Assembly: GCA_049682755.1 (NCBI GenBank)
Contig: JBAUIH010000209.1
Span: 208 to 64,207 of the forward strand
DNA from: Candidatus Aminicenantales bacterium
GTDB taxonomy: Bacteria; Acidobacteriota; Aminicenantia; Aminicenantales; UBA8522
Length of the DNA: 64,000 nt
Direction of reading: 5' to 3'
Part shown: piece after piece, positions 4,501 to 21,554 of the stretch
Layout of the letters: every line of letters starts with the position of its first letter
Position numbering within the stretch: position 1 is the first letter of the stretch
Made by a program: the position numbers and the translations under genes
The notes under the pieces: model-generated
The model's database searches: none
The model's input: the letters and a program-made list of their open reading frames with translations, nothing else
Told to the model about the DNA's origin: nothing

Positions 4501-4599
4501 ATGGTCCTTGGCGGATGGCTTGAGCGGTGAAGCGCAATGCCCGCAGTAAATCGTGTCCTCGGGATTCTCCAACCCGCATTTGGCGCATTTATTGGACAT
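1507..4599 (-). CDS. Ser/Thr protein kinase with N-terminal zinc ribbon, one TM helix, TolB-like periplasmic module and long TPR array
   Basis: Zinc ribbon CAKCG...CGHC. Kinase motifs GKGGMGRVYKA, HRDLKPGNIMV and DFGIAR. TM helix LFVPAIALIVVAAVAVLLW, then SVAVMYFKNNTGD and many TPR-like repeats. I prefer the ATG at 4599 (GGGGAG upstream) over the TTG at 4638 used by the ORF track. Confidence 0.9.
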   Translation of the reverse strand: MSNKCAKCGLENPEDTIYCGHCASPLKPSAKDHFVLTETLRAPREELTTGSTFAGKYQIIEELGKGGMGRVYKALDTEVSEKVALKLIKPEVALDKETIERFRNELKFARKIRHKNVCQMFDLNTSEGTYYITMEYVSGQDLKGLIRQSGRLAVETAVSIAGQVCAGLEEAHRLGIVHRDLKPGNIMVDRDGQARIMDFGIARSIKAKGITGAGVMIGTPEYMSPEQVEGKEVDARSDIYSLGVILYEMVASRVPFTGDTPFTVGVKHKSEVPRPPKEFNAQIPEDLNRVILKCLEKDKGRRYQSAGELRSDLDRIAEGMPTAAHLIPKKKAFTSKEITVTVGVKKLFVPAIALIVVAAVAVLLWRVLPKRKAAPPPTDKPSVAVMYFKNNTGDAGLDHWRTMLANLLVTDLTQSKHIRVLSEDKLFQILDRLNQEDNQTYSADILRQVAEEGGVNHILQGAYARAGEEFRINVTLQAAGSGELIGSESVAGKGEASIFSMVDELTRRVKANFKISPQDIASDIDKDAGIVTTSSPEAYKYYVEGIRHDVKGEYRQVIESMEKAVAIDPDFASAYLAMAWSYGNLYFFAEQRKYEEKAMALSERLTDREKLNIQGNYYMGSEKTYTQALMALEKLIAIYPDDISGGNNLAILYSRMGEIERAIERWRVCVQAGTEDVVIYQNLSGAYENIGAYDKSIEVKESYLKEIGDSAFMRRDLADTYRKLGQYDLALAELDKAARLAPAAWENTRDRGDVYLYMDGLSGAEEEYKKLLQGEEQLSRGWGLLRLISLYNLQGRYEEAKKQTRVFLEIAGKLGQSRWIRMLRGGLSYAEQRSGHPEAALQELDKAWASAVADESFGDQREILLSRGLVHLDMNSIAGAQDIAVQLKAAVDQAPNKKLVWYHHFLTGMIALEKGNYSKAVELFRLGQPLLLEDSGVHLRFADALGSAFYHLGDLAGARREYEKIVSFGAGRLDYGDIYARGYYQLGKISEQQEKTAEAAEHYRKFLDLWKTADPGRPEVDDARNRLAAI

Positions 4600-4788
4600 G
4601 CCGTCTCCCCGACCCAAACGGTGACCGAAGAATATCAACTCGCGGGCGCTGAGTCAAATGAAAATCCCTGAAAAGATACTTCCTTTATAGAGGAATACGG
4701 GAAATTCTTAACGGAAATTGGGGAATCGCTGAGTGTCCGGTTCTGACCTATTATTCTGAATGATTAATGAAAAATGACGAAAAAGATA

Positions 4789-4863: not shown

Positions 4864-7800
4864 TTAGGTTGCTTTCTTAATTGGCCCACCCGGTCCCGCT
4901 GGAAACCGGGTTCTGATGTATTCGGCGGCGCTTTCGGGGCTGAGCTTCACGCTCCCGGGCCCGCTCCGCACATAAAAATCGCCCTCCGGATTCTCCTCTG
5001 TTTGCTTCCATTTAAGAAAGACCGGCTCCGGGCTGCGCTGGCAGGTGACGAGGCAGACGGTCTTTCCCTGGACGACCTGCGTTTTGGGGTCGATACACGT
5101 GCTCGCCCGGTCCCCCAGTCCGTTCCGGACGACCTGAGCGAGGTGGCGCATGAACTCGTCGTCATTATCAAACTGGTCGGCCTCAACCCCTGTGACCTTT
5201 CCGCTATCGCTCACTCCGATCAGGAGGTCGCCGCCCGCAGTGTTCAGGAACGCGGCGATCGTTTTGAGCACGGCATGGGTGATGACTTTGTCGTCCTTAC
5301 GGTTTTCCTTGAGATTCCAGCGCAGAGTCGACTTAAACTCCAGAGTTTTCGATTCTCCGCGTTTGATCAGCTCTTCCGCCTGCCGATGGGCCCGCAAATA
5401 ATGATCGAACAGGAAGTCCTTGAGCGCTTCCCCGAAGGCCCGGTCGTCGGTGATCCGTTTGTAGAGGTCGAAGTTCGAATCCACGATCTCCTGGATGACA
5501 TCCTCGACTTTATGATCGAAAGTCAGGCGGATATTCTCGCGGGTATTGACCCGGGCGCTGGCGTCGAGCGCCGCATCGCCGTCGAGTTTGGCCAGGATCT
5601 GCCCGAGTGTCACCCGGTGCTCCGGTCCGAGGTTCAATCCGAAACGCTCGTTCAGCTCGGCAATGATCAAGGAAAGCGGCTCGAGATCCTCAGGCGCCTC
5701 CCCGTAATGCTCCTTCGTCATCACCGGCTGAAGCTGTTCTCCTTTCCGCTCAAGAGTTATAGCGCCGCTTCCGGTCTGCTGGATGCGGTAAGACTCCATG
5801 TCGATATTCTGCTGGACCTCGCGAGGCAATGTATCCGGGTCGGCGGGGACGAGCCGCCGCAGATGGCGGGCGAAGACATAAAGCTTCTCGAGGTCCGCAT
5901 CGGAGAAAGTCAGAACCTGGGCCAGAAAAGCATAGAGCCGCACATAATCGGTGAGCTGGCCACGGAAATCATGCTGCTCCTCGTCCGAGATTCCGGCAAA
6001 GCGTGTGCTCACGGGAGCCAGAACAGCGTAAAGCTGATCCTGTGTGGTCTTCTTATCAAAATAGGCTTTCGCGAACAAAGCGACGTCGGCGTCGGTGAAA
6101 ACCGGGAAGGCCAGCAGCCGGCTCTGAATTTCGTAAAGCAGGTGCGGGTCGGTCGCTTCGGACAGGAGAGTGGTCTCATAATAGGGCTGGAAGGCCGCCT
6201 GAATGTCATCCGCCTCGTTGGCGAAGTCCAGCACCAGAGTGCCGCTTTTCTCCGGATAAATCCGGTTCAGCCGGGACAGGGTTTGGACCGCATTCACCCC
6301 GCCGAGCTTCTTGTCGACGTACATCGTATGCAGAAGGGGCTGGTCGAACCCTGTCTGAAACTTGTTGGCGCAGATAAGAAAACGATACTCGGGCTTCCCG
6401 AATTCCTTGGCGGTCTGCCGCTCTCCGATCGTCCGTTCTTTCCCGGCGGAGTTCATCCCCGATTCAGTGTAGGCCCGTCCCCCGTCCGGCACACTTCCGG
6501 AGAAAGCCACCAAGGCCTTGAAAGGGTAGCCTTTCTCCCGTAGATACCTGTCCGCGGCCAGCTTGTAGCGCACGGCATGCAGGCGTGACCGGGTCACGAT
6601 CATCGCCTTGGCTCTTCCGCCGATCTCGTTCTGGACCTGGGCGGCGAAGTGCTCCACCATGATCCTCACTTTCTCGTTGATGGCGTGCGGATGGAGCTCG
6701 ACGAACGACTTGAGCAGGTATTCCGCTTTGCTTTTATCGTAACGGGGATCGTCTTCGATCTTCTTGAGAAGCCGCCAGTAGGCCTTGTATGTCGTGTAGT
6801 TCCTGAGGACATCGAGAATGAAGCCTTCCTCGATCGCCTGGCGCATGCTGTAAAGATGGAACGGCTCGAACTTTCCGTCCGTCCTCTTGATGCCGAAGAT
6901 TTCGAGCGTCTTCGCCTTCGGAGTCGCCGTGAAAGCGAACATCGAGAGGTTGGGCAGGCGGCCGCGCTTCTCCATCTCGGCCAGGATAGTGTTCTCGAGC
7001 TCCTCCTCGGGGGTTTGGGCGCCCGCTTCTTCCTTCTCCGCCTCTTCGAGGTTTCCTGAGGCCAGAACGGCCTTGAGGCTCTTCGAGCTTTCGCCCGACT
7101 GCGACGAGTGCGCTTCGTCCACGATGACGGCGAAGCGATGGCCGGGGAGCTCGCCGATCTCGCTCACGATAACGGGGAACTTTTGCAGGGTGGTCACGAT
7201 GATCGTCTTTCCCGACTCGAGGGCTTGTTTGAGTTGGCGGGAGGTCGTATCGATATTCTCCACAACACCCAGCGTCTGCTCGAACTGGCGCATGGTCGTC
7301 TGGAGCTGCCGGTCGAGGATGCGGCGGTCGGTGACGACGACGATCGAGTCGAAAACCCGCTTATCCTCGTTGTCATGAAGCGTCGAGAGCCGGTGGGCGA
7401 GCCAGGCGATGGTGAAACTCTTGCCGGAGCCGGCCGAATGCTGGATAAGGTAGCTCTCACCGGCCCCGTATTGGCGGGCGTGGGCGACCAGCCTCCGCAC
7501 GGCATCGAGCTGCTGATACCGGGGGAAGATCAGGGAGCGCTTTCCGGTCTTGCGGCCCCGCTCGTCCTCTTCTTCGATTTCGTGGACAAACTGGCGGATG
7601 AGGTCGAGGACACTGTCTCTGGACCAGATTTTCTCCCATAGATAGGCAGTAGGATAGCCTTTCTGCGTCGGCGGAACCGGCGGGTTTCCCGCCCCACCGA
7701 ACTTGCCCTGGTTGAAGGGCAGGAATCGCGTCCTCGGTCCGGCAAGTTCCGTCGCCACATAGACAAGGTCCGGGTCCACGGCGAAATGAGCCAGGCAGCG

Positions 7801-8421
7801 CCCGTAGGCGAGGAGCGGCTCCCGGGGATCCCGGTCGGACTTGTATTGCCTGATGGCGTCCTCGACGGTCTGACCGGTAAGCGGATTCTTGAGCTCGGCG
7901 GTGAAAATCGGGATGCCGTTCAGGAAAAGGACCATGTCGAGAGTCTGAATGCTCTTTTCACTGTACCGGAGCTGACGGATTACGGAAAAGAGATTCGCCG
8001 CGTGAAGCCGCCTGATCTCCTCGTTTAGCCCGCTCGCCGGCCGGAAGAAGGCCAGCTTGAATTTGCAGCCCGAATCCTTGATCCCGTTCCGCAGCACATC
8101 CAGCGCGCCGCGCCGCCCGATCTCCCGCGATAGGCGTTTGAGGAATTGTTCTTTAGCCGAGGCGCCGTAAGGCTGCTTGAGCCTTTCCCATTCCTTCGGC
8201 TGCGTCGCGATGATAAAGTCGATGACGTCGCGCGGAATGAGGCATAGCGACTGGTCGTATTCTTCAGGCGGCCGCTTTCGATATCCTCCGGGAGGGGATT
8301 CTCCGTAAGGCGGCGCCGTCTCGCGCACACCGACCATCTCTCCAGCGCAGGCATCCGGCCCGTGCCGAAGCAGCCCGCATTCAATGGTTTTTTCAAAACT
8401 TCGCTCGGAGACTTCCGGCAT
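4864..8421 (-). CDS. hsdR: Type I restriction enzyme R subunit with extra C-terminal AlbA_2 (Schlafen-type) domain
   Basis: N-terminal PD-(D/E)xK nuclease (DMVLFLNGIPIFTAELK). SF2 helicase motifs (HSAGSGKS, VIVDEAHSSQSG, QTGFD). The last ~166 aa (KRGESKTLEFKS...AAFLNTAGGDLLIGVSD...YVRSGPGS) match the AlbA_2 pattern. Confidence 0.9.
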   Translation of the reverse strand: MPEVSERSFEKTIECGLLRHGPDACAGEMVGVRETAPPYGESPPGGYRKRPPEEYDQSLCLIPRDVIDFIIATQPKEWERLKQPYGASAKEQFLKRLSREIGRRGALDVLRNGIKDSGCKFKLAFFRPASGLNEEIRRLHAANLFSVIRQLRYSEKSIQTLDMVLFLNGIPIFTAELKNPLTGQTVEDAIRQYKSDRDPREPLLAYGRCLAHFAVDPDLVYVATELAGPRTRFLPFNQGKFGGAGNPPVPPTQKGYPTAYLWEKIWSRDSVLDLIRQFVHEIEEEDERGRKTGKRSLIFPRYQQLDAVRRLVAHARQYGAGESYLIQHSAGSGKSFTIAWLAHRLSTLHDNEDKRVFDSIVVVTDRRILDRQLQTTMRQFEQTLGVVENIDTTSRQLKQALESGKTIIVTTLQKFPVIVSEIGELPGHRFAVIVDEAHSSQSGESSKSLKAVLASGNLEEAEKEEAGAQTPEEELENTILAEMEKRGRLPNLSMFAFTATPKAKTLEIFGIKRTDGKFEPFHLYSMRQAIEEGFILDVLRNYTTYKAYWRLLKKIEDDPRYDKSKAEYLLKSFVELHPHAINEKVRIMVEHFAAQVQNEIGGRAKAMIVTRSRLHAVRYKLAADRYLREKGYPFKALVAFSGSVPDGGRAYTESGMNSAGKERTIGERQTAKEFGKPEYRFLICANKFQTGFDQPLLHTMYVDKKLGGVNAVQTLSRLNRIYPEKSGTLVLDFANEADDIQAAFQPYYETTLLSEATDPHLLYEIQSRLLAFPVFTDADVALFAKAYFDKKTTQDQLYAVLAPVSTRFAGISDEEQHDFRGQLTDYVRLYAFLAQVLTFSDADLEKLYVFARHLRRLVPADPDTLPREVQQNIDMESYRIQQTGSGAITLERKGEQLQPVMTKEHYGEAPEDLEPLSLIIAELNERFGLNLGPEHRVTLGQILAKLDGDAALDASARVNTRENIRLTFDHKVEDVIQEIVDSNFDLYKRITDDRAFGEALKDFLFDHYLRAHRQAEELIKRGESKTLEFKSTLRWNLKENRKDDKVITHAVLKTIAAFLNTAGGDLLIGVSDSGKVTGVEADQFDNDDEFMRHLAQVVRNGLGDRASTCIDPKTQVVQGKTVCLVTCQRSPEPVFLKWKQTEENPEGDFYVRSGPGSVKLSPESAAEYIRTRFPAGPGGPIKKAT

Positions 8422-9582
8422 TCAAATCTCCGTCCCTTGCCTGAGAATATCCAGGCATTTTTCATACGCGTACAATCTGTTTCTCTTCCGTCCCGTGACC
8501 TCCTTCACGATTCCGATTTTTTGAAGCGAATCAAGGACGCTGGTCACGGTAGGCGGTGAGATCTTCGTTTTGTCTGACAGGAATGGAATATTCGCGATGG
8601 GCCGGCCTTGAAGGACCTCGTGTATCCGAAGAGCGGAGCTGGCCTTTCGTCCAAGGTCGCCGATCTTTTTCCGGTCCTCCTCAGCGACTTCGTTCAAACG
8701 CCTGGCTGTCGTCACCGCTCCTTCGGCCATCTCCCGGACTCCGTCGACGAAAAAACGCAGCCACGTTTCCCAGTCCCCTTCCTGACGGACTTTCATCAGG
8801 AGATCGAAATATTGCGACCTGTTCTGTTTGAAATAAAGACTGAGATAAAGAAGCGGGTGCCGAAGGACCCCCTCATGGCAAAGGAGCAACGTAATCAGCA
8901 GGCGGCCTATCCGGCCGTTGCCATCGCTGAAGGGATGGATTGTCTCGAATTGCACATGGGATAGGGCAGCCTTGATCAGGATTGGGATTCTTTCGGGAAT
9001 ATCATGAAGGAATTTCTCAAGCGCGCTCATGCATTCGGCCACGCGGCCGGGTGGAGATGGGACATAAATGGCGTTGCCCGGCCGGGTTCCTCCGATCCAG
9101 TTCTGATCGCGGCGAAACTCGCCGGGATTCTTGTCGCTCCCGCGGCCTTTCGCCAGCAGAACTCCATGAACCTCACGAATCAGGCGGTTGGATAGGGGGA
9201 ATCCTTCCCTGAGCCTTTTTAAGCCATGGTTCATTGCCGAGACATAGTTTGAAACTTCCACGACATCGTCGAGCGGGACTCCAGGGGCCTCTTTTAGTTC
9301 GAAGAGCAAGAGATCGGACAGCGATGTCTGTGTCCCCTCGATTTGAGATGAAAGCACCGCCTCTTTGCGTATATACATGTATAGGAAAAGATCGATATCG
9401 GGCAGAAGAGTGGCAACGCTGTCGAGCCGCCCGAGAGAGAGAAGAGCCTGATCGATGGCATCCCGAAGCGAGAAATCGATAACGAGAGGAGGAATCGGCG
9501 GTAGGGGGCGGGGAACAAAGGCTCGGACGGTTTCCTCACCGGTTTGCCTGACGATGTATTCCCCTGTTAATCCTCGATTCAT
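8422..9582 (-). CDS. Fic/DOC family protein, class II (Fic_N + Fic + C-terminal wHTH; SoFic-like layout)
   Basis: Active-site motif HPFSDGNGRIGRLL. Intramolecular inhibitory motif SSQIEG (S-x3-E-G). C-terminal wHTH-like ISPPTVTSVLDSLQKIGIVKE. The stop TGA directly abuts the hsdR ATG. Confidence 0.9.
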   Translation of the reverse strand: MNRGLTGEYIVRQTGEETVRAFVPRPLPPIPPLVIDFSLRDAIDQALLSLGRLDSVATLLPDIDLFLYMYIRKEAVLSSQIEGTQTSLSDLLLFELKEAPGVPLDDVVEVSNYVSAMNHGLKRLREGFPLSNRLIREVHGVLLAKGRGSDKNPGEFRRDQNWIGGTRPGNAIYVPSPPGRVAECMSALEKFLHDIPERIPILIKAALSHVQFETIHPFSDGNGRIGRLLITLLLCHEGVLRHPLLYLSLYFKQNRSQYFDLLMKVRQEGDWETWLRFFVDGVREMAEGAVTTARRLNEVAEEDRKKIGDLGRKASSALRIHEVLQGRPIANIPFLSDKTKISPPTVTSVLDSLQKIGIVKEVTGRKRNRLYAYEKCLDILRQGTEI

Positions 9583-9598
9583 GGCTAATCTTTGCAGG

Positions 9599-9669
9599 TC
9601 CGGTCTAATTAAAGTTTCTTTAATTAGACCGGAGCTACTTAAAGGATAACGCCTTTTCCTTTAATAAGC
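9599..9669. promoter_or_regulatory. Operator-like module: 35-nt perfect palindrome plus TTATTAAAG-type half sites, 16 nt upstream of the fic ATG
   Basis: tccggtctaattaaag-ttt-ctttaattagaccgga (9599-9633), then cttaaaggataa and cctttaataagc. The module is collinear with the first ~65 bp of the 415-bp elements at 10481 and 13521. Confidence 0.5.
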
Positions 9670-9704
9670 AAGGGGATTTTAAATTGGTCTTTACCTTCCT
9701 TTTT

Positions 9705-10322
9705 TCATACACTCCAGCTGTATAACAAAGCCTCCAGATATGGTCTCATGACGTTCCAAACCCGGCATATCTTGGCATATTGATAGACCTCGTCGGAGGT
9801 GGCCTTCTTCTCACGAAGACATTCCCTGGCGGCTTCGATGGCGGCCTCAAGGCCGATACGATTTCGGAACTTGAAGCAGTCAGCGACGGTTTTCGCTGGG
9901 CTGTAGATCTTGACTGCGACTCCCTCTATCTGATGTTCATCGATCCCTTCGGAAAAGGACGGTCCGGAGAATCGAACGATTGACACCGGAGGATAGGAAA
10001 GGTGCGGTTGAGCGCTCCCCCTTCTGAGTGCCAGCCAGACCTTCCGGGGAAGTTGGGTGCCGATGTTATGATAACGCAGGGCGGAGGTCAAGCAGATGAC
10101 GCCCTTCGGAATTCGCTTTCCGATGATCGCAAAATTATGAAACTCGGTGATTTCCGAATCAGCCAGGACGTAGAGACCCCTTTCTGGACGAACAAGGAGT
10201 CCCTTGGTCACCAGCCTGCGGGCATACTCTGGATGAATATTCCGTTCAAGAAGATCCTTAATGCGGATTGTCCCCAGTTGTTTGGCCAGCTCGATGATGA
10301 CCTGCTCCGTGGATTTTTCCAT
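9705..10322 (-). CDS. AbiEi-like (type IV TA antitoxin family) wHTH protein, copy 1; no AbiEii partner
   Basis: ~205 aa, with RGLYVLAD, VICLTSALRYH and TVADCFKFRNRIG motifs typical of AbiEi_4/COG5340 proteins. I prefer the ATG at 10322 (the ORF track starts at TTG 10331). Confidence 0.75.
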   Translation of the reverse strand: MEKSTEQVIIELAKQLGTIRIKDLLERNIHPEYARRLVTKGLLVRPERGLYVLADSEITEFHNFAIIGKRIPKGVICLTSALRYHNIGTQLPRKVWLALRRGSAQPHLSYPPVSIVRFSGPSFSEGIDEHQIEGVAVKIYSPAKTVADCFKFRNRIGLEAAIEAARECLREKKATSDEVYQYAKICRVWNVMRPYLEALLYSWSV

Positions 10323-10329
10323 GTGTAAC

Positions 10330-10357
10330 AATATATATATATATCAATAAATGTCAA
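10330..10357 (-). promoter_or_regulatory. Sigma70-like promoter of abiEi-like copy 1 (TTGACA-N16-TATATT), near-leaderless
   Basis: The minus strand reads TTGACAtttattgatatatatatatattgttacacATG. The -10 ends 7 nt before the ATG, there is no SD, and an (AT)7 tract occupies the spacer and -10 region. Confidence 0.5.
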
Positions 10358-10480
10358 TACTTTTACACGTGATCGAAGTTTGGAAGAGCGCAGGCGAATT
10401 TGACAAATCCTCGGTAATCATATGCATTTACCTGGGAAATGCAAGTGCTCCTTCAGGATAAGTCGGGGCTTTTACTGGCG

Positions 10481-10895
10481 TTATTAAAGATACTTTAATA
10501 AGCCCACTGCTTATTAAGGGATAAAGGCTTATCCTTTAATAACGATTCTGGATAGAACTGCCATCACTTGCGTACAACTGATGGCAGTTTTATCCGGAGG
10601 TGTCCAATTTGCCCTCTTAACTTTGCGCATGCTGAACCCTGCTTATCGCCGGGGCGGAAAGCATTCGGCTATCAGACGCTCAGGACAAGGTCCCACTGCG
10701 ACCATGAAAATCGAACACTCAGTGATGGATTTTCATGGTATGATTCGACAGTTTTATGTTTCGATTTTAGCGTCGACCGCGACTGAAACATGGCCCCACA
10801 TCCAGCTTTCTCCTCATAAGCATACTTCCTAGGCCCCAACTTGTTACTTGTCAGAAGGAATGCGTTAGCCTAAAATTAAACTGCAGTTTGAGGGC
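10481..10895. repeat. 415-bp conserved non-coding element, copy 1
   Basis: Gapless alignment to 13521-13935. Perfectly conserved blocks include tatcctttaataacgattctggatagaa and ctgcgaccatgaaaatcgaacactc. There is a 12-bp-stem hairpin at 10701-10739. No conserved ORF is present. Confidence 0.8.
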
Positions 10896-11046
10896 ATATC
10901 TTAATGAATTATGCAAAGGAGCAATCTCCCCCCTATTTTGATTTTTGCACGGAGATACGCGATGCCTAAGCGTACGAATGAGTTCCAGCAACTGGTCATG
11001 AGAATGTATAAACAGATGGCGGGTCCCGGCGACGTTGAACCCGGCC

Positions 11047-12099
11047 TTAGGTTTTTTTGCCTGATCCGAGCCAGCCTTGTTCGGCAAGTCGTGTCCACGC
11101 AATATGAATGTGCTCAGGTTTGAACATTTTCTGCTTCCTCTCGTTCCATTTATGAACTGCTCGAACGGCTTCATTAGGATTCGAAACCGTGGTTTCCCCA
11201 TGAACCGCTATCCAATGCACCGACGAGAGAAGCTCCAATCCGTACGGAGTTTCAAACCCTTCAATCACCGTCGCGACCCGTTTTAACCTGTCGGCAGAAG
11301 CTTCGTTACCCGAAAGGGATTTGTCTGACTCTTTAATCGCCCCCGGCAAAAGCTCGATCTCGACATCAGGTTTCTGGGTGTCCCCGTATCCTCTGATAAA
11401 GTGTCCTTCCATAATCTCGAGAACTTTGTTCAGGTTGTGGGCATAGGGTCCAAATAGTCCGGCTTCATATCTCAATCGAAGGGGCTCTCCCGCTTCCTGC
11501 AGGAAGTATGCCATTTTCTGAACTTCAAGGAGGGTTAGGCGATAGGCCAATTGGGCATATTGATGGATTAGCCTGATGAGCAGCGCCCTGGCGATTGTCA
11601 TCCTTGGCCGCTTAGTGCGAACGGGCATAGCCCTGGCATCAGGCGTGCCAATGGGCTCAAATAGCATTACACGTGTGTTTGGCAAAGCAGCAAATGCTCC
11701 CTCTATAAGGGGCTTCACGTCTTTCCAGTTTAGCCCTCCAAGCCCGCATCCTAACGGAGGTAGAGCAACAGAAGAAATGCCGAGCTTTCTAATCTCTTCG
11801 ATAAGAGATCTTAATCCAATTCGAACATCTTCGATTTGTGACTTTGCCCTCCAATCGCGCTTAGTCGGGAAATTGACAATATATTTTGGATTGACCAGCG
11901 AACCGGTAGAGAAGACAAATACCTTCCCCGGCCTTATTCCGTTCGCCCGGCAGGCTCGTTCGTAAGCTTTAAAGTTATCGGGGAAGGCTTTCTTAAATTG
12001 AAGGGCTATGCCCTTGCCCATATATCCGACGCAATTGACTGTGTTTACTAATGCCTCCGCATCGGTTTCAATCAGATTCCCCCGAGTGATCTCGATCAT
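11047..12099 (-). CDS. darG: DarG antitoxin (macrodomain ADP-ribosyl hydrolase + C-terminal DarT-binding region)
   Basis: The N-terminal macro domain MIEITRGNLIETDAEALVNTVNCVGYMGKGIALQFKKAFP...PPLGCGLGG is followed by a ~190-aa C-terminal domain. The gene starts 13 nt after darT. Confidence 0.85.
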   Translation of the reverse strand: MIEITRGNLIETDAEALVNTVNCVGYMGKGIALQFKKAFPDNFKAYERACRANGIRPGKVFVFSTGSLVNPKYIVNFPTKRDWRAKSQIEDVRIGLRSLIEEIRKLGISSVALPPLGCGLGGLNWKDVKPLIEGAFAALPNTRVMLFEPIGTPDARAMPVRTKRPRMTIARALLIRLIHQYAQLAYRLTLLEVQKMAYFLQEAGEPLRLRYEAGLFGPYAHNLNKVLEIMEGHFIRGYGDTQKPDVEIELLPGAIKESDKSLSGNEASADRLKRVATVIEGFETPYGLELLSSVHWIAVHGETTVSNPNEAVRAVHKWNERKQKMFKPEHIHIAWTRLAEQGWLGSGKKT

Positions 12100-12112
12100 T
12101 TTGTTGCCCCGA

Positions 12113-12757
12113 CTAATAATACCATTCCGGTTTGATAATTACCATTGGGCGGAGCGATAAAGGGAAACTTCCCAGGATTCGCTCCACCGAGGATTTTATC
12201 CTTGTATTAATAACGGCAATTTTCTTGATAAATTGAAAATCGCATCGCCGATGTACCAAAAACTCAGCCTGTTTTCGGCGCTGCCGATCCATATCGTCTA
12301 CTGTATCATTCCAAGCAGTGGCATAAATTGTATTCCAATCTAATCTTCCAAGATCGGCAAGGTCGTCATACCAACTTGTATAGAAAGCGATGCCGTGCCC
12401 ATCAGAAAAAACAAAGGGGGTGCCGCCTTGATGAATGCTTTGGGCTGTAGAAATTAGATAGATCAAAGGCTCCTGGCCTCCCTGATAATCGGCAATCCTG
12501 CCCGTATGGAGTTGATATAGCATCGGAGATCGTGGGCCGAAATAAAATGAAACGTAATCATGGATTACGCCCCCTGACCCACACGGAATTGTTGTTACCT
12601 GCCTGAGTTGCTGTATTTCTATGTTATGGATTGCCCTATAGAGTAGTCTATTTTTTGGCATGTAGTTGGGCGCATGGAGCGCTCTTCTACGTAAGCATAC
12701 GGACAGATTGTCAACGTGTATGAAACGGAAAATTGGGGTCGGGATAGGAACAGTCAC
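12113..12757 (-). CDS. darT: DarT (DUF4433) ssDNA thymidine ADP-ribosyltransferase toxin
   Basis: IFRFIHVDNL..., YVSFYFGPRSPMLY and RRKQAEFLVH motifs are characteristic of DUF4433/DarT. GTG start with GAGG upstream. Confidence 0.85.
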   Translation of the reverse strand: MTVPIPTPIFRFIHVDNLSVCLRRRALHAPNYMPKNRLLYRAIHNIEIQQLRQVTTIPCGSGGVIHDYVSFYFGPRSPMLYQLHTGRIADYQGGQEPLIYLISTAQSIHQGGTPFVFSDGHGIAFYTSWYDDLADLGRLDWNTIYATAWNDTVDDMDRQRRKQAEFLVHRRCDFQFIKKIAVINTRIKSSVERILGSFPLSLRPMVIIKPEWYY

Positions 12758-12849
12758 TTCATTGCCTCATGTCCTATGTTGATTCAGCCTGTGCAGGGAG
12801 CAGAAATCAAACCGGACAGAATGGGCCATGTTCGTCGGATTCCGAACGC

Positions 12850-13458
12850 TCATTGAATGGCCTCAAGGTAAGGGAGCATGACCTGTTTCATCCGCAGGAG
12901 CGCGGCATAGTCCAGGATCTCGGAAATCGTGCAGACGCCTCGACGCTGACTAAGCCGCAGGGCTTCGACAGCGATATCGATTCCGATCCTGTTGCGGAAC
13001 TTGAAACAATCCACGATGGTTCGGGCTGGAGCGTAGATACGGACCTTGAATCCATCGACATCGTGAATTTCGATCCCAAGCTTATGAATTTCGCGAGAAA
13101 ATCTGTATATCCTCATAGGAGGAAAATCCAGGCGTGGGGTTTTTGTCCCGCGAGGAAGGGCCATGTCGACCCAATGGGGAACTTGAGTTGTTATTCCGTG
13201 AAAAGACAGTGAAGAAATAAGACAAATAACCGCGCCCGGAACTCGGGCGGCTACCACTGAGAGGTCGGGATTCCCCAGGTCAGGTAAGTCGGCCAGCCGA
13301 TACAGGCCGCGGCTCAGAGGAACGATCCGGCCGCTTGCGCGCAGCGAGTAGAGACTTCTCGGGTGTATGCCCTCGGCAATGGCCTGGGATGTCCGGAGAG
13401 TACCCCCTTGCTCTCGGAACATCTTTTCTGCCTCTTCTTCACGTGTCCGGTATCGCAT
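12850..13458 (-). CDS. AbiEi-like wHTH protein, copy 2; no AbiEii partner
   Basis: Same family as 9705-10322 (RGLYRLAD, VICLISSLSFH, TIVDCFKFRNRIG). About 43% aa identity to copy 1 by hand alignment (76/175). Confidence 0.75.
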   Translation of the reverse strand: MRYRTREEEAEKMFREQGGTLRTSQAIAEGIHPRSLYSLRASGRIVPLSRGLYRLADLPDLGNPDLSVVAARVPGAVICLISSLSFHGITTQVPHWVDMALPRGTKTPRLDFPPMRIYRFSREIHKLGIEIHDVDGFKVRIYAPARTIVDCFKFRNRIGIDIAVEALRLSQRRGVCTISEILDYAALLRMKQVMLPYLEAIQ

Positions 13459-13466
13459 AATGGATA

Positions 13467-13496
13467 ATTATGCCATCACATATATATAATTGTCAA
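13467..13496 (-). promoter_or_regulatory. Sigma70-like promoter of abiEi-like copy 2 (TTGACA-N18-CATAAT), near-leaderless
   Basis: The minus strand reads TTGACAattatatatatgtgatggCATAATtatccattATG. The -10 ends 8 nt before the ATG, and the spacer again contains a TA-repeat tract. Confidence 0.45.
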
Positions 13497-13520
13497 CCTT
13501 TTTATCCATTTCAAATTAAC

Positions 13521-13935
13521 CAATTAAAGAAACTTTAATAAGCCAGCTGCTTATTAAAGGATGCCGACCTATCCTTTAATAACGATTCTGGATAGAAATG
13601 CCATCACTTATGCATAAGTGTAGCCATTCTTATCCGGAAGCGTCGGAGTTGGGCTTTTAGCTTTGCTAATGCTGCACCCGGGTTACCGCCAGAAGGGCGA
13701 GTATTTGGCCATCGGACGCTCAGGATAATGTCTCTCTGCGACCATGAAAATCGAACACTCCGCGATGGATTTTCATGGTATTGACCAAATATCTTAGGTG
13801 TCGATTTTAGCGCTAGCCGCGACTGAAACGTGGCCGAGCATACACCTTTCTCTTCTCAATTGGATATTCAGGCCGGCGACTTGTTACTTGCCATATAACC
13901 TGGGTCATCCTAAAATGATACTGCAGTATGAGGGC
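13521..13935. repeat. 415-bp conserved non-coding element, copy 2
   Basis: See 10481-10895. The hairpin lies at 13741-13779, at the identical offset (+220). The operator-like module 13521-13583 lies only ~27 bp from the abiEi-2 -35 box. Confidence 0.8.
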
Positions 13936-14125
13936 CTACCGGATGGAATCGTCCGAAATATAGAGCCCCCAAGGATAGGAAAACCGGACCGGCAATGAAT
14001 TCCCTCCTATTAACGAGCGGTACGGAAGTGGCCTTGGCGCGGATAATATGGATAACAAATTATTAGGGCTCCATTATCTCGGTATTACTGACTGCTGCAA
14101 TCAGCTGTGATAGGATTAATTCAAA

Positions 14126-14815
14126 ATGAGCAGGCAGCTTACAGCAGAAGAGGCCAAACGAAGCTTTATCGAATCCATGGGCGATCCTCTGGGAAGGCTA
14201 TTTTATGCATTATGGCAGGAATTGGCAGGGCTTTATGCGAAGTGGGAGGAATACCTCGTGCTTTACGGAACAAAAGAATCACGAATAAATCTTCTGAACA
14301 AAGCCGCTCCCCTCTTCTTTCGAATAATCCAAGATGTTCTTTGGGAGGACATAATTCTCCACATTGCGCGGTTAACTGATCCTCCAAAATCCTCTGGAAA
14401 GGCCACCCTCACAATTAGAAGGCTTCCCGATTTGGTAAAGGATGGCAATACAGCTCAGGCTTTAAGGGGACTTATCAATATCGCGATACAGTCATCAGAA
14501 TTTTGTCGCGATTGCCGGAATCGGTATATCGCGCATAGAGACCTCAACCTTGCTCTTGAGAAAGAGATTGTTCCCTTGAAGCCCGCTAGTAGAAAAAAAA
14601 TCAAAGAAGCTCTCAATTCCATTGCCGAAGTGCTTAACGCGGTTTCGCAACATTATACAGATTCGGAGATGACATTTGATATTGGTGAAGATCCCGAAGG
14701 AGCGGTTTCGCTCCTATATGTAATCGATGATGGATTGAAAGCAGGAGAAGAACGTAAAGAACGTATAAGTAGCGGTAAATATCGGAAGGACGATTTTAGT
14801 CCTCGCGATTTGTAG
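14126..14815 (+). CDS. HEPN-domain protein, AbiU2-like (putative abortive-infection RNase)
   Basis: LLNKAAPLFFRIIQDVLWEDIILHIARLTDP, then CRNRYIAHRD (R-x5-H, the HEPN Rx4-6H motif). This pattern matches what I recall for the HEPN_AbiU2 family. Confidence 0.55.
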   Translation: MSRQLTAEEAKRSFIESMGDPLGRLFYALWQELAGLYAKWEEYLVLYGTKESRINLLNKAAPLFFRIIQDVLWEDIILHIARLTDPPKSSGKATLTIRRLPDLVKDGNTAQALRGLINIAIQSSEFCRDCRNRYIAHRDLNLALEKEIVPLKPASRKKIKEALNSIAEVLNAVSQHYTDSEMTFDIGEDPEGAVSLLYVIDDGLKAGEERKERISSGKYRKDDFSPRDL

Positions 14816-14995
14816 CTATCACCTTAATAATTAAATTAGCAGACCAGCCGCAGATTTCGTTTTGAAGCCAAGTTTCGAAGATTGAAACGGGGCGTCATTA
14901 AGGAGAAGCGCACGACACCTGCGCGCATTCCGAGCGCGCAGGTGGCTAGGGAGTTCAGTGCGTACGTCGCTTGGAGTTTATAAAGGGAGACTTAG

Positions 14996-15850
14996 ATGGG
15001 GCATCATTATGTACCTCGAAAATATCTGAGAGGTTTTGCGGATCCGAACAATCCTGGAAAGATTTGGATGTATGATAAGCATTCCCATCGGTTCACGCAT
15101 GCTAGCATTATATCCGTTGCTCAAGAGGCGAGTTACTATAGCGAGGATGCAGAGAGGCAGCTCAGCGAGTTTGTCGAGGGTCCTGCCCATAAGGTTCTTA
15201 AGAAGCTTCGATGCGGGGATTCTATCAATGATAACGAGCGTATGAGGCTTGCGCTATATGTAGCGACAATGTTGATGAGGGTGCCGCGGCGACGCAGAAA
15301 AGCTTTCGAGATGCTTCCCAGCGTGCGCGAGGATGTAATCAACCGAGCTACTCTTATTATTACTCAATGGGCTAAAACCAGCATGGTCGCCCCCGCACTT
15401 AAGCTTAAGAGATTTGCTGAACTAGAGCGAGCACGCGAAAAGCTGCGAGCCCAGCCACCGGAAGAGGTTGTAAAGAAGATTCGGGCTCCTTGGCCAAGTG
15501 AGAAAGTATTAGCGTGCGTTATCGGTATGACTTGGCGGATCGCGTCGGCCGGTGACGCCGGGTTTTTTCTCACCTCGGATAATCCAGCATTTTTTTTCGA
15601 AGCCTATGGACTCGGCAGGCCCGAATCAGAGCTGACATTTCCTCTTGCATCTGAACTGGCACTGCTAGGTAGTTGGCAGGGAGCGCCTAATGAAACAATT
15701 TTTGTCAAAGCGAAGCCATCGCTCATGAAGGAAGTCAATCGTCGAATCGCAAGCGGCGCTGAGCGCTTTGTTTTCTATCGCGGCCGTGAAGACTGGGTGG
15801 CTCAGCTTGCGGAAAGGCGGAACCTCCGCCTTAATCGCATTATTTGGTAA
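14996..15850 (+). CDS. DUF4238 family protein
   Basis: The N-terminal HHYVPRKYLRGF is the DUF4238 signature, and FFLTSDNP occurs later. Coordinates are taken from the ORF track. Confidence 0.65.
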   Translation: MGHHYVPRKYLRGFADPNNPGKIWMYDKHSHRFTHASIISVAQEASYYSEDAERQLSEFVEGPAHKVLKKLRCGDSINDNERMRLALYVATMLMRVPRRRRKAFEMLPSVREDVINRATLIITQWAKTSMVAPALKLKRFAELERAREKLRAQPPEEVVKKIRAPWPSEKVLACVIGMTWRIASAGDAGFFLTSDNPAFFFEAYGLGRPESELTFPLASELALLGSWQGAPNETIFVKAKPSLMKEVNRRIASGAERFVFYRGREDWVAQLAERRNLRLNRIIW

Positions 15851-16254
15851 ATGGAGTGCTGGCTAATATTATCCGCTTCTCGCCCACCACGCGTTAAAAG
15901 AAAAGCCAAGTTTCTTAGAAAAGAGGATAAATTATCTCCTCAAGGAAGTGAGCGCCCCAATTTATCAAGATAACTAGCGTTGCTGGTACTTCTAACGGGG
16001 GAGGCGAAAAGCTGCGGTAATTTATCCCAAATCAGGGCGATTATAAAAAGTAAAATTCTAGAGCCCTCTACACGAGAGTTTGCGTTCTGACATATATAGT
16101 TCTAAGATAGTATGGAAGAGGAGGGTTATTATAACAATGCAGTTTTATGAAAAACGGTTTTCCAACTTAGGGGTCAGTCCATTGGACTAAAAAGCGTCCC
16201 GGCTATTTCTATTAGTGCAGGACGCAAGCATCCCATAGACCGGAGGCATATACA

Positions 16255-16449
16255 ATGACAGCAGCACCCAAAATACAAGGATTACCTGACGTACCCACCC
16301 TGGTGTTCGAGACGTTTCTTGAGGCACTTCAGCAGGCGGGGGCGTCAGATGAGTTGATCATTCGGCTTCGCAAGACTCTTACGGAGGAAAAGAAATTCAC
16401 CGAGCGCGCCTTAAAGGATACTGTCCTCCCGGAGGAGTCACTAACATGA
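16255..16449 (+). CDS. Small hypothetical protein (64 aa), translationally coupled to the downstream ATPase
   Basis: GGAGG lies 8 nt upstream of the ATG. The stop overlaps the ATPase start (ATGA at 16446-16449). Helical, acidic composition; I recognise no family. Confidence 0.5.
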   Translation: MTAAPKIQGLPDVPTLVFETFLEALQQAGASDELIIRLRKTLTEEKKFTERALKDTVLPEESLT

Positions 16450-18902
16450 TTAGGGTCGAATCTATCACAATCAGTGAGTTTCGCGGAATCCGAAACTTGA
16501 CGCTGGATCTTAACGAAAAGAGCTTTGCTGTTTGTGGCCCAAACGGCACGGGAAAGAGCGGGGTGGTTGACGCCTTGGAGTTCGCGCTGACCGGAAATGT
16601 ATCCCGGCTCTCTGGAGAGGGCAGAGGTGAAGTTTCCCTGAAACAGCACGGACCCCACGTGGACAGACGGAATGATCCTGACAGGGCCCGCGTGAGATTA
16701 AAGATCACAATCCCAAGCCTGAATAAGTCCGTCACTATCGAGCGCAGCTTAAAGAATCCGGGGGCTGCCCAAGTGGCGCCGGCCGAGCCCTTAGTATTTG
16801 ACGTACTTCGTCAGGTTGAGGCGCATCCCGAGATTGTGCTTTCGCGCAGGGAGTTGATACGCTACGTTCTTGCTACGCCCGGCAAACGCGCCGAGGAAGT
16901 TCAGGCGCTGCTCCACCTTGACCAAGTCGAACAGGTCAGAGGTGTTCTGCAGAAAATCGCGAATGCCTGCGAGAAGCAACTAGGTCCTCTGAGCGCAGCG
17001 GCCAAAGAAGCCGGCGATAATTTGTTGCGTGCACTGGGGATTTCCGAATTGGTAAAGGAAAAGGTGCTGGCCGCGACAAACACCCAGCGGGCGAGTCTTG
17101 GTCTCCCTCCACTGACAGACCTGACTGAAACAACATCCCTCAAGGACGGGATGGCGACACCGGCACCGGCTCAGCCTCGCCGCATCTCCAAGGTCCAAGC
17201 CCTCACTGATATTCGAGCCACCCGTGAGGTTCTCTCAGAAATTGCCAGCGAGGAAACAAGAAACCTTGTTACTGAAGTGATATCTGATCTCAATACGCTT
17301 GCTGCGGATCCAGCAATTGTTGCAGGCTTGAAACGAGAAGCTTTCTTTGCCACCGGGATGGAACTGGCTGAGACAGGAGCCTGTCCTCTTTGCGATACAC
17401 CATGGGACCTTATTGAACTAAAGAAATACATTCAGGCCAAGATCGATTATATGAAAGAGCTATCGCGTAAGCGCGGAGCGGCAGAAAAAAAGATTGCTCC
17501 GCTTATCGTAACACTGCGCAAGGTGAAGGCTGGAATGGAAACACTGATCGGTTACGGCGAGTTCGCAACTCCGACGTTGGTTATGAAAACTGCCCGAGCC
17601 TATACTAGCGATTGCGCAAATGCGGTCGATAGGCTAACGGCCTTACTTCCACTTGATGAAGCGACCAAGGTGCTCAGGAATGTGCCGATCATCCAGCAAA
17701 CTGTTCTAGACTCCATAAGAGAGCTTGAACAAGTGGTTGTTGCGCTCCCTGAGCCAACAAAGCTGGACGCAGCAAGGGATTGGCTTGCCGTCGCGCAAGA
17801 GAGACTTGAGAAATGGCGCGATGTCATGCGGAAAAATAAGACCGCCAGGGAACAAGCCCAGAGAACACGACAAGTATCTGATATTTATGCTGCCTCCAGC
17901 GATAAAGTTCTCGCAGGGATCTATGCAAGTGTGGAAAAGGACTTTTCTTTGCTTTACAGCTTCCTTAACCGCGAGGACGAAGAAAAGTTTAATGCTAAAC
18001 TAATTCCGTCATTAGGAAAGCTCGGCTTCGATGTTGACTTTTACGGACGTGGCTTTTTCCCGCCCGGTGCTTATCACAGTGAAGGCCATCAAGATAGCAT
18101 GGGCGTATGTTTATACCTAGCATTGATGAAACACCTCCAAGGCGAGAACTTTACTTTGGCTGTGCTTGACGACGTCCTTATGTCGGTGGACACGGGCCAT
18201 CGGCGGGAGGTCTGTTCCCTATTAAAGAAGGAATTTCCGAACACTCAATTCGTAATTACCACACATGACCCCATCTGGCTGCGTCACCTGAAAACCGAAG
18301 GTATTATTGGAGGAAAATCATCGGTGCATTTCAGAAAGTGGAGCATTAACCAGGGGCCGACACGATGGGATATGCGGGATGTATGGAGTGAGATCGAGGA
18401 ATCCATAGAGGAAAACGACATACGTGCAGCCGCCTCACTCCTCAGGTATTACCTTGAGTATGAGTCGGCTGAACTATGTCAGAGGTTGCGCGCCCTAGTT
18501 GAGTTTCGTGGCGATGCACAATATCAACTTGGCGATCTTCTTCCCCCAGCGATCATTCGGATGCGCAATCTTTTTCGTCAAGGGAAGGCTGCTGCCAATT
18601 CCTGGAACCAGAAGGAGATAATCGAACAGCTTGCCACACGCGAGGCCGAATTCGCTAAGGTGGCGACGGCCTCAAGAGTTGAGCAATGGCAAATGAACGC
18701 ATCGATACACTATAACTCCTGGGACAACCTATGCAAAGAGGACTTTGTACCTGTAGCGAAAGCGTTCCGGGACCTCCTCCAAGGATATATGTGCCGGGAT
18801 TGTGGAGAGTATCTCCGTGTCTCCCCAGAACGTAATGCAGGCGAGTCGATCCGTTGCGAATGCGGGAAAACTACGTTTAACCTCCTTGGAAAAAGCGGGT
18901 AG
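16446..18902 (+). CDS. SMC/Rad50-like ABC ATPase with CxxC zinc hook and C-terminal R-x3-E...H + 4-Cys ribbon tail (RloC-like)
   Basis: Walker A GPNGTGKS (aa 31-38). Signature-like YHSEGHQDS (543-551). Walker B LAVLDDVLMSVD (571-582). ITTHD (604-608). CPLC at aa 313-316, midway through the helical insert. Tail motifs LLRYYLEYE, NASIHYNSW and CRDC-x17-CEC. Confidence 0.85.
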   Translation: MIRVESITISEFRGIRNLTLDLNEKSFAVCGPNGTGKSGVVDALEFALTGNVSRLSGEGRGEVSLKQHGPHVDRRNDPDRARVRLKITIPSLNKSVTIERSLKNPGAAQVAPAEPLVFDVLRQVEAHPEIVLSRRELIRYVLATPGKRAEEVQALLHLDQVEQVRGVLQKIANACEKQLGPLSAAAKEAGDNLLRALGISELVKEKVLAATNTQRASLGLPPLTDLTETTSLKDGMATPAPAQPRRISKVQALTDIRATREVLSEIASEETRNLVTEVISDLNTLAADPAIVAGLKREAFFATGMELAETGACPLCDTPWDLIELKKYIQAKIDYMKELSRKRGAAEKKIAPLIVTLRKVKAGMETLIGYGEFATPTLVMKTARAYTSDCANAVDRLTALLPLDEATKVLRNVPIIQQTVLDSIRELEQVVVALPEPTKLDAARDWLAVAQERLEKWRDVMRKNKTAREQAQRTRQVSDIYAASSDKVLAGIYASVEKDFSLLYSFLNREDEEKFNAKLIPSLGKLGFDVDFYGRGFFPPGAYHSEGHQDSMGVCLYLALMKHLQGENFTLAVLDDVLMSVDTGHRREVCSLLKKEFPNTQFVITTHDPIWLRHLKTEGIIGGKSSVHFRKWSINQGPTRWDMRDVWSEIEESIEENDIRAAASLLRYYLEYESAELCQRLRALVEFRGDAQYQLGDLLPPAIIRMRNLFRQGKAAANSWNQKEIIEQLATREAEFAKVATASRVEQWQMNASIHYNSWDNLCKEDFVPVAKAFRDLLQGYMCRDCGEYLRVSPERNAGESIRCECGKTTFNLLGKSG

Positions 18903-19048
18903 TCGAGGAAAGTCGGCGACCTAAAAATCTTGCTGGCTGACGGGACGCCCCCTATGGGCTATATGGCTTATCCATGTGATGAAGCCGGAACTATTATTCC
19001 CTATTAATAACTCAGTTAGCAGGGCAAATCATCCCAATACGAAAACTT

Positions 19049-19705: not shown

Positions 19706-19781
19706 TTTGTCCTCCCGGAGATTGACCAGAATGCACTTATTTTTTGATGCGCAATATTTAATTTATTAAAATCCTTTTGGT

Positions 19782-21146: not shown

Positions 21147-21147
21147 G

Positions 21148-21519
21148 CTATATGAGTATCCTCTTAATTGAACCTTCGCCCATGTCTATGACGATTGAGC
21201 AGAAACGCACGTTGAAAAATTGCTTGAATGTCTTAAACGAGAGGTCCTTCGGCCATAGACTGGAATCGATACACCAGTCGTTAAGTTCAATCTCAAATAT
21301 TTTCCTGAAGTTTTTTTCGAGCCAAGGATCCGGATTGCTATCGATTTCGGGTATCAGGTATGCAGACGAGTCTTCCAGGAGCTCGTCCAACGTCAGTGTT
21401 GGGTATTCGTCGGGGAATTTCCTCGCCCATTCCAGAAAAGCGGTCGTCGGTTCAATTAGGAGGACAAACCTGTTTATCGTTGGCAGGTCATGGATGGACG
21501 TTTCAAGCTGAGAATTCAT
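21148..21519 (-). CDS. Hypothetical 123-aa protein wedged between hsdM and hsdS
   Basis: The ATG at 21519 lies 35 nt after the hsdM stop. Its TAG stop ends 1 nt before the hsdS ATG. Sequence MNSQLETSIHDLPTINRFVLLIEP...WPKDLSFKTFKQFFNV; I recognise no family. The longer ORF-track version (to 21822) overlaps hsdM and is rejected. Confidence 0.6.
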   Translation of the reverse strand: MNSQLETSIHDLPTINRFVLLIEPTTAFLEWARKFPDEYPTLTLDELLEDSSAYLIPEIDSNPDPWLEKNFRKIFEIELNDWCIDSSLWPKDLSFKTFKQFFNVRFCSIVIDMGEGSIKRILI

Positions 21520-21554
21520 GGCGTCAATCCCTGGGGCACCTTTAGCCTTTCTGT

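Follow-up and report, generated by a model that had tools for sequence, protein, structure and literature searches.

AbiEi genes without AbiEii in a composite type I restriction-modification island of an Aminicenantales bacterium, and their probable place at the head of an hsdR operon

The 64,000-nucleotide (nt) stretch of DNA analysed here (contig JBAUIH010000209.1; the window) comes from a metagenome-assembled genome (MAG) of a Candidatus Aminicenantales bacterium and carries, at 4.86-23.66 kb, a single composite type I restriction-modification (R-M) island with embedded cargo. Two minus-strand genes of the AbiEi family lie within it, and neither is followed by a gene for AbiEii, the toxin that defines AbiE systems. 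AbiEi-1 (12850-13458; 202 amino acids (aa)) is followed on the same strand by darT-darG, and AbiEi-2 (9705-10322; 205 aa) by fic-hsdR; an earlier note on this DNA had described this order, and all its coordinates hold. The explanation that we favour, with moderate confidence, is that two type I R-M loci were fused and that AbiEi acts as an autorepressor heading an hsdR operon with a slot in which cargo turns over. It is carried by the gene identities, scars at a gene junction, recurrence in related loci, purifying selection, and the conservation of promoters and their repeats.

Judged by profile searches, both proteins are genuine, full-length members of the two-domain AbiEi family (COG5340), C-terminal domain included, and not look-alikes, as the earlier note had proposed. 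AbiEi-1 matches Pfam AbiEi_4 (PF13338; 2.6e-12) and the PADLOC AbiEi model (2e-67, residues 6-201), and AbiEi-2 matches the same models with values of 1.7e-12 and 5.8e-80 (residues 7-202); both PF13338 matches exceed the gathering score. The family profile also matches the Streptococcus agalactiae AbiEi structure 6Y8Q (1.7e-14, residues 10-182 of 195), and with this protein and Mycobacterium tuberculosis Rv2827c the window proteins belong to the same family over the full length. Scans of both with Pfam, NCBIfam and PADLOC returned AbiEi-family models only, with no homology to Xre-type C-proteins or to the regulator RptR.

AbiEi-1 and AbiEi-2 are 43% identical to each other (48% for the nucleotide sequences of their genes), and each has closer relatives in other loci, which are designated here by L numbers. 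AbiEi-1 is 88% identical to the AbiEi of L017, where AbiEii and HsdR lie downstream. AbiEi-2 is 85% identical to the AbiEi of L004, also followed by AbiEii and HsdR, and 69% identical to that of L008, followed by a palindromic element (P, described below), Fic and HsdR. The ratio of non-synonymous to synonymous substitution rates (dN/dS) is 0.09-0.18 in all between-locus AbiEi comparisons and 0.12 for the orphan pair, AbiEi-2 and its L008 counterpart, for which dS is saturated (about 1.9). With dN/dS at about 0.1, purifying selection acts on the orphan AbiEi genes. Six C-terminal residues (D148, C149, F150, R153, N154 and G157) are invariant in 25 sequences, and the C-terminal domain is conserved like the winged helix-turn-helix (wHTH) domain.

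The window contains no AbiEii, in agreement with the earlier note. A hidden Markov model (HMM) was built from 51 cognate AbiEii proteins adjoining relatives of these AbiEi genes, and a six-frame search of the whole window with this model, which represents this subfamily alone and not every nucleotidyltransferase family, gave no match (best E = 0.43). On the same result, the possibility of a concealed or degenerate abiEii in other parts of the window was rejected. AbiE systems are defined by the AbiEii toxin; these loci lack it and so fall outside that class. They differ from AbiE in having no AbiEii partner (only a 41-nt relic of it at AbiEi-1) and in their leaderless-looking mRNAs. They differ further in that their AbiEi units lead to DarTG or Fic-HsdR, inside a type I R-M locus and with hsdR in the operon.

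Each abiEi gene is preceded by a promoter-like site bracketed by an inverted repeat. At AbiEi-1 (13460-13509, minus strand), the predicted operator ATGGATAA-N34-TTATCCAT surrounds TTGACA (13496-13491) and CATAAT (13472-13467), and the ATG stands 8 nt past the -10 box. At AbiEi-2 (10323-10368, minus strand), GTGTAAAAG-N28-TTGTTACAC surrounds TTGACA (10357-10352) and TATATT, with the ATG immediately after. These inverted repeats are type-specific (8-N34-8 for AbiEi-1 and 9-N28-9 for AbiEi-2) and cover -35 to +1. The AbiEi-1-type repeat is present in five loci; it is kept in L011, L017 and L180 and has one mismatch in L012. The AbiEi-2-type consensus, GTGTAATAG-N28-CTTTTACAC around TTGACA and the -10 box, is conserved in ten loci. 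In both types the repeat ends 0-3 nt ahead of the ATG, which implies leaderless abiEi mRNAs. Both promoters score 11/12 in a promoter scan, which found no other promoter-like site between each AbiEi and the downstream darT or fic. Given these strong sites and the lack of others downstream, the abiEi promoters plausibly set the expression of darTG and fic-hsdR.

In its sequence, this layout appears to match the architecture of the S. agalactiae AbiEi operator, an 11-N27-11 repeat that covers -35, -10 and +1 and is bound by monomers (PMC3985639, PMC7319586). Repression in that system requires the full-length protein, including the C-terminal domain (PMC3985639, PMC7319586). As in AbiE, the region from -35 to +1 of each abiEi promoter lies between two inverted half-sites (PMC3985639). 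The Rv2827c promoter has two repeat pairs (PMC7319586), and AbiEi-1 likewise has a second repeat about 130 nt upstream (13589-13635); this AbiEi-1-operator-like repeat occurs at the same distance in both copies of a non-coding element (X, described below), the other copy being at 10549-10595.

Between the AbiEi-2 promoter and the nearest upstream copy of P lies a relic of a third type of AbiEi promoter/operator, with no gene attached (10399-10445, minus strand; TTGCAT…TTCCCAGGTAA…TTACCGAGGAT…TTGTCAAAT). In L186 the aligned sequence continues without interruption into the ATG of a third-type abiEi; L008 and L179 also have the relic. Since it is conserved there, it may have kept a function as a second promoter further upstream. 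From its position upstream of AbiEi-2, we infer that AbiEi promoter-plus-gene units replaced one another at the same site.

The ground state in the related loci appears, from gene order, to be AbiEi-AbiEii-HsdR in a single overlapping operon. This order is found with gene overlaps of 4 nt and 11-14 nt in L004, L180, L186 and L188; L017 has it too, but with abiEii called 48 nt past the AbiEi stop. The relatives of AbiEi-1 at 85-89% identity (L017, L011 and L180) have the AbiEi-AbiEii order. Those of AbiEi-2 at 79-90% identity (L001, L004, L188 and L191) have AbiEii next, and in L004 and L188 this is followed by the same Schlafen (SLFN)-fused HsdR as in the window, with hsdM-hsdS upstream. In L185/L186, the gene nearest to AbiEi-2 in sequence (91% identity) stands alone and shares its altered 3' end; another X-P-AbiEi-AbiEii-HsdR unit comes after it.

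A survey of downstream neighbours, which the earlier note had suggested, bears out its expectation in part. AbiEii comes next in 62 of 72 GTDB species representatives (86%) and in 35 of 50 metagenome contigs (70%), yet AbiEi without AbiEii recurs at hsdR. In L012, L179 and L182, AbiEi lies 28-61 nt ahead of hsdR; L012 and L179 retain, after the AbiEi stop, the ATGAGC with which abiEii opens. L049 (898-6572; an Anaerolineae MAG) has the order AbiEi, AAA_21 ATPase, DUF4276 and HsdR, and L008 is described below. Among the distinct hsdR-linked AbiEi loci (n=12, gathered through different queries and therefore a non-random sample), six have AbiEii and six have none, against about 14% without AbiEii in the general family; the contrast is suggestive of an enrichment of orphan AbiEi at hsdR. 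Away from hsdR, L036 (6986-13830; an Acidobacteriaceae MAG) carries AbiEi, DUF6088, an unknown gene and BrxA-BrxB-BrxC, and a DUF6088 gene stands between AbiEi and AbiEii in L042 and L065 (GTDB). Literature searches for AbiEi heading hsdR, or paired with cargo other than AbiEii, found no report.

The arrangement at AbiEi-2 has a counterpart in a different organism. L008 carries P, AbiEi, P, Fic and HsdR in this order, and its intergenic P and fic start align closely with those of the window; identity is 69% for AbiEi, 75% for Fic and 84% for HsdR. The order AbiEi-2-P-Fic-HsdR is the older arrangement. The fic gene (8422-9582, minus strand) encodes a class II Fic protein of SoFic type with a C-terminal wHTH (Pfam Fic_N, Fic and wHTH; PADLOC SoFic 1.5e-121, residues 18-381). 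Its translation contains the core motif HPFSDGNGR (HPFSDGNGRIGR) and the inhibitory-helix sequence SSQIEG (S-x3-E-G). Since it scores 153 bits with the NCBIfam SoFic equivalog model, below the cut-off of 550, it is regarded as SoFic-like rather than as an equivalog.

The restriction-subunit gene hsdR (4864-8421, minus strand) abuts the fic stop codon and encodes HSDR_N, ResIII, SWI2_SNF2 and T1R_D3 domains followed by a C-terminal SLFN/AlbA_2 domain. The protein scores 222 bits with TIGR00348, below the cut-off of 285, and is 84-87% identical to the HsdR proteins of L004, L008 and L012. The SLFN/AlbA_2 domain occupies residues about 1023-1160 (5.5e-20), and the fusion is kept in L004, L008, L012, L180, L186 and L188. 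In L011, HsdR is reduced to a C-terminal SLFN fragment that follows AbiEii.

At AbiEi-1 the downstream genes are darT (12113-12757, minus strand; NF048013 1.2e-66, PF14487 7.5e-55), for the single-stranded DNA ADP-ribosyltransferase toxin, and, after a 13-nt spacing, darG (11047-12099, minus strand; NF048014 5.6e-137), for the macrodomain antitoxin. DarT scores 224 bits with NF048013 (cut-off 150) and DarG 456 bits with NF048014 (cut-off 250), which places the pair in the DarTG family. The closest DarT relatives (69-78% identical; L179, L180/181 and L182, also L012) stand directly behind hsdS with no AbiEi ahead. In these loci the darT start overlaps the hsdS stop, and an AbiEi(-AbiEii)-HsdR unit lies some kilobases further on.

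Two scars are preserved at the AbiEi-1/DarT junction. The first is a 41-nt relic of the abiEii 5' end (12813-12853, minus strand), which retains the ATGA overlap with the AbiEi-1 stop. It is identical to L017 at 39 of 41 positions and to L180 at 38 of 41, and the following 41 nt match at just 9-11 of 41. The relic opens a 28-codon open reading frame (ORF), whose end at 12767 overlies a GAGG and leaves 10 nt to the darT GTG; with its end so close to the darT start, translation of the two may still be coupled. The second scar is a decayed hsdS 3' end (12758-12812, minus strand) directly upstream of darT. In a gapless, anchored alignment it matches the hsdS 3' ends of L179 and L182 at 24-26 of the distal 50 nt (null 12.5 ± 3.1; maximum 24 in 9000 draws), and it ends …ISAPCTG*, where relatives read …ISAAVTGKID…. 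Comparison with relatives shows that the resident hsdS has an intact C terminus (…VSAAVTGKIDVRDLS), so the relic derives from a second hsdS copy.

The juxtaposition of AbiEi-1 and DarT is thus a one-off fusion of two loci, on the evidence of the abiEii and decayed hsdS scars, and no second AbiEi-DarTG example was found among the loci examined. The earlier note had suggested that AbiEi was recruited as a portable controller, which would make AbiEi-DarTG an evolved architecture; the scars, and the close DarT relatives without AbiEi, contradict this. Its reading of AbiEi as a recruited controller is partly right for Fic-HsdR, which recurs in L008, and wrong in spirit for DarTG. The left half of the window island (hsdS, a 218-aa gene, X, P and AbiEi-1) is orthologous to L017, with a near-identical 218-aa protein and the AbiEi at 88% identity. 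The right half combines the L179-like order of hsdS tail, DarT and DarG with an L008-like P-AbiEi-2-P-Fic-HsdR part.

The simplest history would be the fusion of two type I R-M loci, with abiEii-hsdR lost from one and hsdM-hsdS from the other. The left, L017-like locus would have given hsdM, hsdS, X, P, AbiEi-1 and the first 14 codons of abiEii, and the right locus the last ~55 nt of hsdS, DarT-DarG, X, P, AbiEi-2, P, Fic and HsdR. The abiEii of AbiEi-1 would have been lost in the fusion and that of AbiEi-2 earlier, probably in a lineage common to the window AbiEi-2 and the solo AbiEi of L186, which have the same abiEii-free 3' end. Downstream of this gene the window has P-fic-hsdR and L186 has another X-P-AbiEi-AbiEii-HsdR unit; the P-fic order of the window is also that of L008.

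In the proposed mechanism, hsdR of this lineage would be transcribed from an AbiEi-headed operon, from a leaderless sigma70-type promoter bracketed by a type-specific inverted repeat, with the operon order abiEi, a slot normally holding abiEii, and hsdR. Each AbiEi most likely binds the repeat of its own promoter and represses there; as a by-product it would set transcription of the downstream darTG or fic-hsdR. DarT would stay neutralised by DarG, and Fic by its intramolecular inhibitory helix.

The modules of the island are delimited by element P, a 60-nt double palindrome present at 13523-13582, at 10483-10542 and, between AbiEi-2 and fic, at 9608-9667; the third copy has an extended hairpin with 19-bp arms (9596-9636) and in whole spans 9596-9667. 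Its sequence is TTATTAAAGGAT-N8-ATCCTTTAATAA plus CTTATTAAAG-N3-CTTTAATAAG. The three palindromic regions described in the earlier note are real: TTATTAAAG occurs seven times in the window, all within these regions, where 0.17 occurrences are expected. An alignment of 14 copies from ten loci has 77% column identity, loops included, and P is found outside the window in L008, L100, L179, L180, L182, L017, L011, L021, L022 and L001. Its position is always that of a module boundary: ahead of abiEi, ahead of fic (window, L008 and L100), right behind hsdS (L022) or behind abiEii (L021). The intergenic RNA of the third copy folds with -39.8 kcal/mol (z = -5.7) and that of the L008 copy with -50.5; symmetric changes keep the stem.

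Several identities for P were considered. A canonical intrinsic terminator is not supported, the stems being AT-rich and the second and third copies having no U-tract. An integron attC-like or phage att site was rejected because P does not have the fitting core motifs and its consensus finds no match in viral contigs. The earlier note had proposed the palindromes as AbiEi operators, and the first hairpin does include GGATAA…TTATCC, the half-site hexamer of AbiEi-1. However, P is the same across AbiEi types and the promoter repeats vary by type, which makes P less likely as a specific operator and the promoter repeats likelier. P might serve as an attenuator or insulator, as a site for an auxiliary protein, or as a stretch of homology for recombination.

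Element X is a conserved non-coding direct repeat of ~370 nt that follows P upstream of AbiEi-1 (13583-13955) and AbiEi-2 (10543-10915). The in-register repeat starts in P; its first 300 nt show 78% identity and no indels, which makes it far more conserved than the adjoining abiEi genes (78% versus 48% at the nucleotide level). Outside the window, X occurs in L004, L186 and L188, and L017 has part of it. Each window copy contains a palindrome with 12-bp arms, ACCATGAAAATC-N15-GATTTTCATGGT (10701-10739 and 13741-13779), and a divergent promoter-like site (10848-10876 and 13888-13916). A small gene is not supported, as mismatches between the copies (50/48/41) show no codon periodicity. Nor is a structured RNA, Rfam being empty at gathering and permissive thresholds; folding gives z of about -4.2 on both strands, with an unfavourable covariation term (+5.6) from three sequences.

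Several points weigh against the proposed fusion and AbiEi-headed operon. DNA binding by AbiEi, co-transcription and a regulatory consequence are proposed by analogy with the characterized systems. The promoter scan uses a sigma70-type consensus that may not be the Aminicenantes' own. The double hairpin of the third P copy could terminate or attenuate transcription before fic, and fic-hsdR might therefore use an unrecognised promoter inside P, where a weak TTGCTT-N17-TATCCT is present. An AbiEii encoded in trans elsewhere in the MAG is possible, the AbiEii search having covered the window. The comparison of orphan frequencies draws on the non-random set of loci noted above. The fusion itself could have come about either by deletion within a tandem pair or by import of a partial foreign locus.

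The alternative that survives best, although we consider it unlikely, is that AbiEi was recruited as a general, C-protein-like regulator of diverse toxic cargo, with the DarTG pairing as an evolved architecture. The swapping of promoter-plus-gene cassettes, seen in the third-type relic upstream of AbiEi-2 and in the tandem X-P-AbiEi modules of L186, speaks for such portability, as does the presence of AbiEi ahead of Fic, of AAA_21 and DUF4276, of DUF6088 then BREX genes, or of hsdR directly in several genomes. To this extent the portable unit of the earlier note stands, as a swappable cassette; its evolved pairing with DarTG does not. The DarTG case bears scars of abiEii and hsdS, and nothing comparable is seen in the close DarT relatives that were examined. 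In the unbiased samples, 86% (GTDB) and 70% (metagenome) of AbiEi genes retain AbiEii. Moreover, the constant downstream partner is hsdR and not a toxin: what had been read as two independent toxin cassettes is all embedded in one type I R-M island.

More doubtful still is a role in trans, in which orphan AbiEi would be kept as an antitoxin or anti-addiction factor against an AbiEii elsewhere or incoming, its position next to DarTG or Fic being incidental. In its favour, the C-terminal antitoxicity domain matches the wHTH in conservation (six invariant residues, 25 sequences), dN/dS is about 0.1, and AbiE is so abundant that cognate toxins elsewhere are plausible. The C-terminal conservation does not discriminate, however, because the C-terminal domain of the S. 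agalactiae protein is also required for repression (PMC7319586), and the clustering of orphans at the head of hsdR (six of 12 versus about 14%) fits a role in cis better. That the AbiEi genes are non-functional leftovers of rearrangement heading for decay is very improbable: the AbiEi-1/DarT junction does look like a plain deletion scar, fairly recent given an abiEii relic 95% identical to relatives, and decay occurs in such islands (L011, with the HsdR C-terminal fragment alone left), but both ORFs are intact and full length, promoters and repeats are intact, the orphan state of AbiEi-2 is common to L008 across a dS of about 1.9 with dN/dS of 0.12, and orphan AbiEi stands directly before hsdR in at least three further loci.

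The surroundings of these genes are those of a type I R-M locus, as hsdM, hsdS and hsdR domains are all present in one place (4864-23657). The methylase-subunit gene hsdM (21555-23657, minus strand) has Pfam matches to HsdM_N (1.2e-24) and N6_Mtase (4.3e-54), and the specificity-subunit gene hsdS (19782-21146, minus strand) matches Methylase_S in two stretches (8e-24). In the direction of transcription, the minus strand reads hsdM, hsdS, the 218-aa gene, AbiEi-1, DarT, DarG, AbiEi-2, Fic and HsdR. The GC content is 0.44-0.50 across ~9-21 kb, and 0.58 in hsdM, hsdR and the flanks. The 218-aa gene after hsdS (19049-19705, minus strand) and an ORF of ~121 aa between hsdM and hsdS (about 21148-21513; also in L004, L180, L185 and L188) have no Pfam match and are part of the island backbone.

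A plus-strand block of candidate defence genes (14126-18902) separates the 218-aa gene from AbiEi-1. It encodes HEPN_AbiU2 (14126-14815), DUF4238 (14996-15850), a 64-aa ORF (16255-16449) and an 818-aa SMC/ABC-type ATPase with weak similarity to PtuA, LmuB and MADS3 (16446-18902), all on the plus strand; the pair of 64-aa and 818-aa genes also adjoins element X in L004 and L185. A 116-aa ORF at 10851-11201 is treated as spurious because it has no family match and overlaps element X and the end of darG. Adjoining the island at 1507-4638 is a gene for a 1043-aa Ser/Thr kinase that has a zinc ribbon at its N terminus and contains TPR repeats; a similar 1035-aa kinase at the edge of L001 suggests synteny with a related organism.

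The closest functional analogues of the proposed AbiEi role appear to be RptR and the C-proteins of type II R-M systems, a resemblance that is positional and functional only. RptR, a 79-aa all-alpha dimer, binds TAGCTA repeats and represses an island of enteropathogenic Escherichia coli (EPEC) comprising a type I R-M system and DarTG2 (PMC12255303). Both cases would involve a small DNA-binding autorepressor in an island of type I R-M and DarTG, as shown for RptR and predicted here. The proteins are unrelated, AbiEi being a two-domain wHTH protein of ~200 aa with no homology to RptR. Furthermore, RptR heads its whole island, whereas the window AbiEi heads the hsdR-proximal unit only, hsdM-hsdS being apparently transcribed separately. 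Like a C-protein, AbiEi would be a small regulator just upstream of, and co-transcribed with, a restriction gene and acting on its own promoter. C-proteins, however, are dimers of Xre type that activate and then repress in type II systems; AbiEi has no homology to them, and there is no evidence of activation here.

The embedding of defence genes in type I R-M operons is itself already known (PMC12255303), for DarTG (PMC5179494) and as 'guilt by embedding' (bioRxiv 10.1101/2024.01.29.577857), and the hsdS-hsdR region has been flagged as a hotspot for embedded cargo (PMC12255303). The window conforms to this: in a variable segment of low GC content between hsdS and hsdR, it carries DarTG, SoFic, AbiE, HEPN_AbiU2 and an ABC-type ATPase. 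These papers cover embedding as such, and neither an AbiEi-headed hsdR operon nor the loss of AbiEii from one. The finding therefore adds an instructive variant to the known shuffling of defence islands; the system is not new in kind.

A wider generalisation can be put forward tentatively, with less confidence than the fusion and operon themselves. In Aminicenantes and some other phyla, AbiEi may be a dedicated autorepressor of the type I restriction-subunit operon, with a regulatory life independent of its toxin. The abiEi-hsdR gap would be a cargo slot filled by AbiEii, SoFic, AAA-DUF4276 or nothing, and P and X would be module boundaries providing homology or signals for cassette exchange. 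The interest of the window lies in an hsdR operon that recurs with AbiEi at its head and a slot of changing cargo, and the window's junction scars are an unusually clear record of the fusion of R-M loci and the rewiring of a toxin module to new promoters. The regulation of defence islands is poorly understood, RptR (2025) being so far the main type I R-M example. If the proposal is true, a very abundant 'antitoxin' family doubles as a controller of restriction, and the persistence of orphan AbiEi genes is explained; annotation pipelines would be warned against reading a lone AbiEi simply as the remains of a broken AbiE system.

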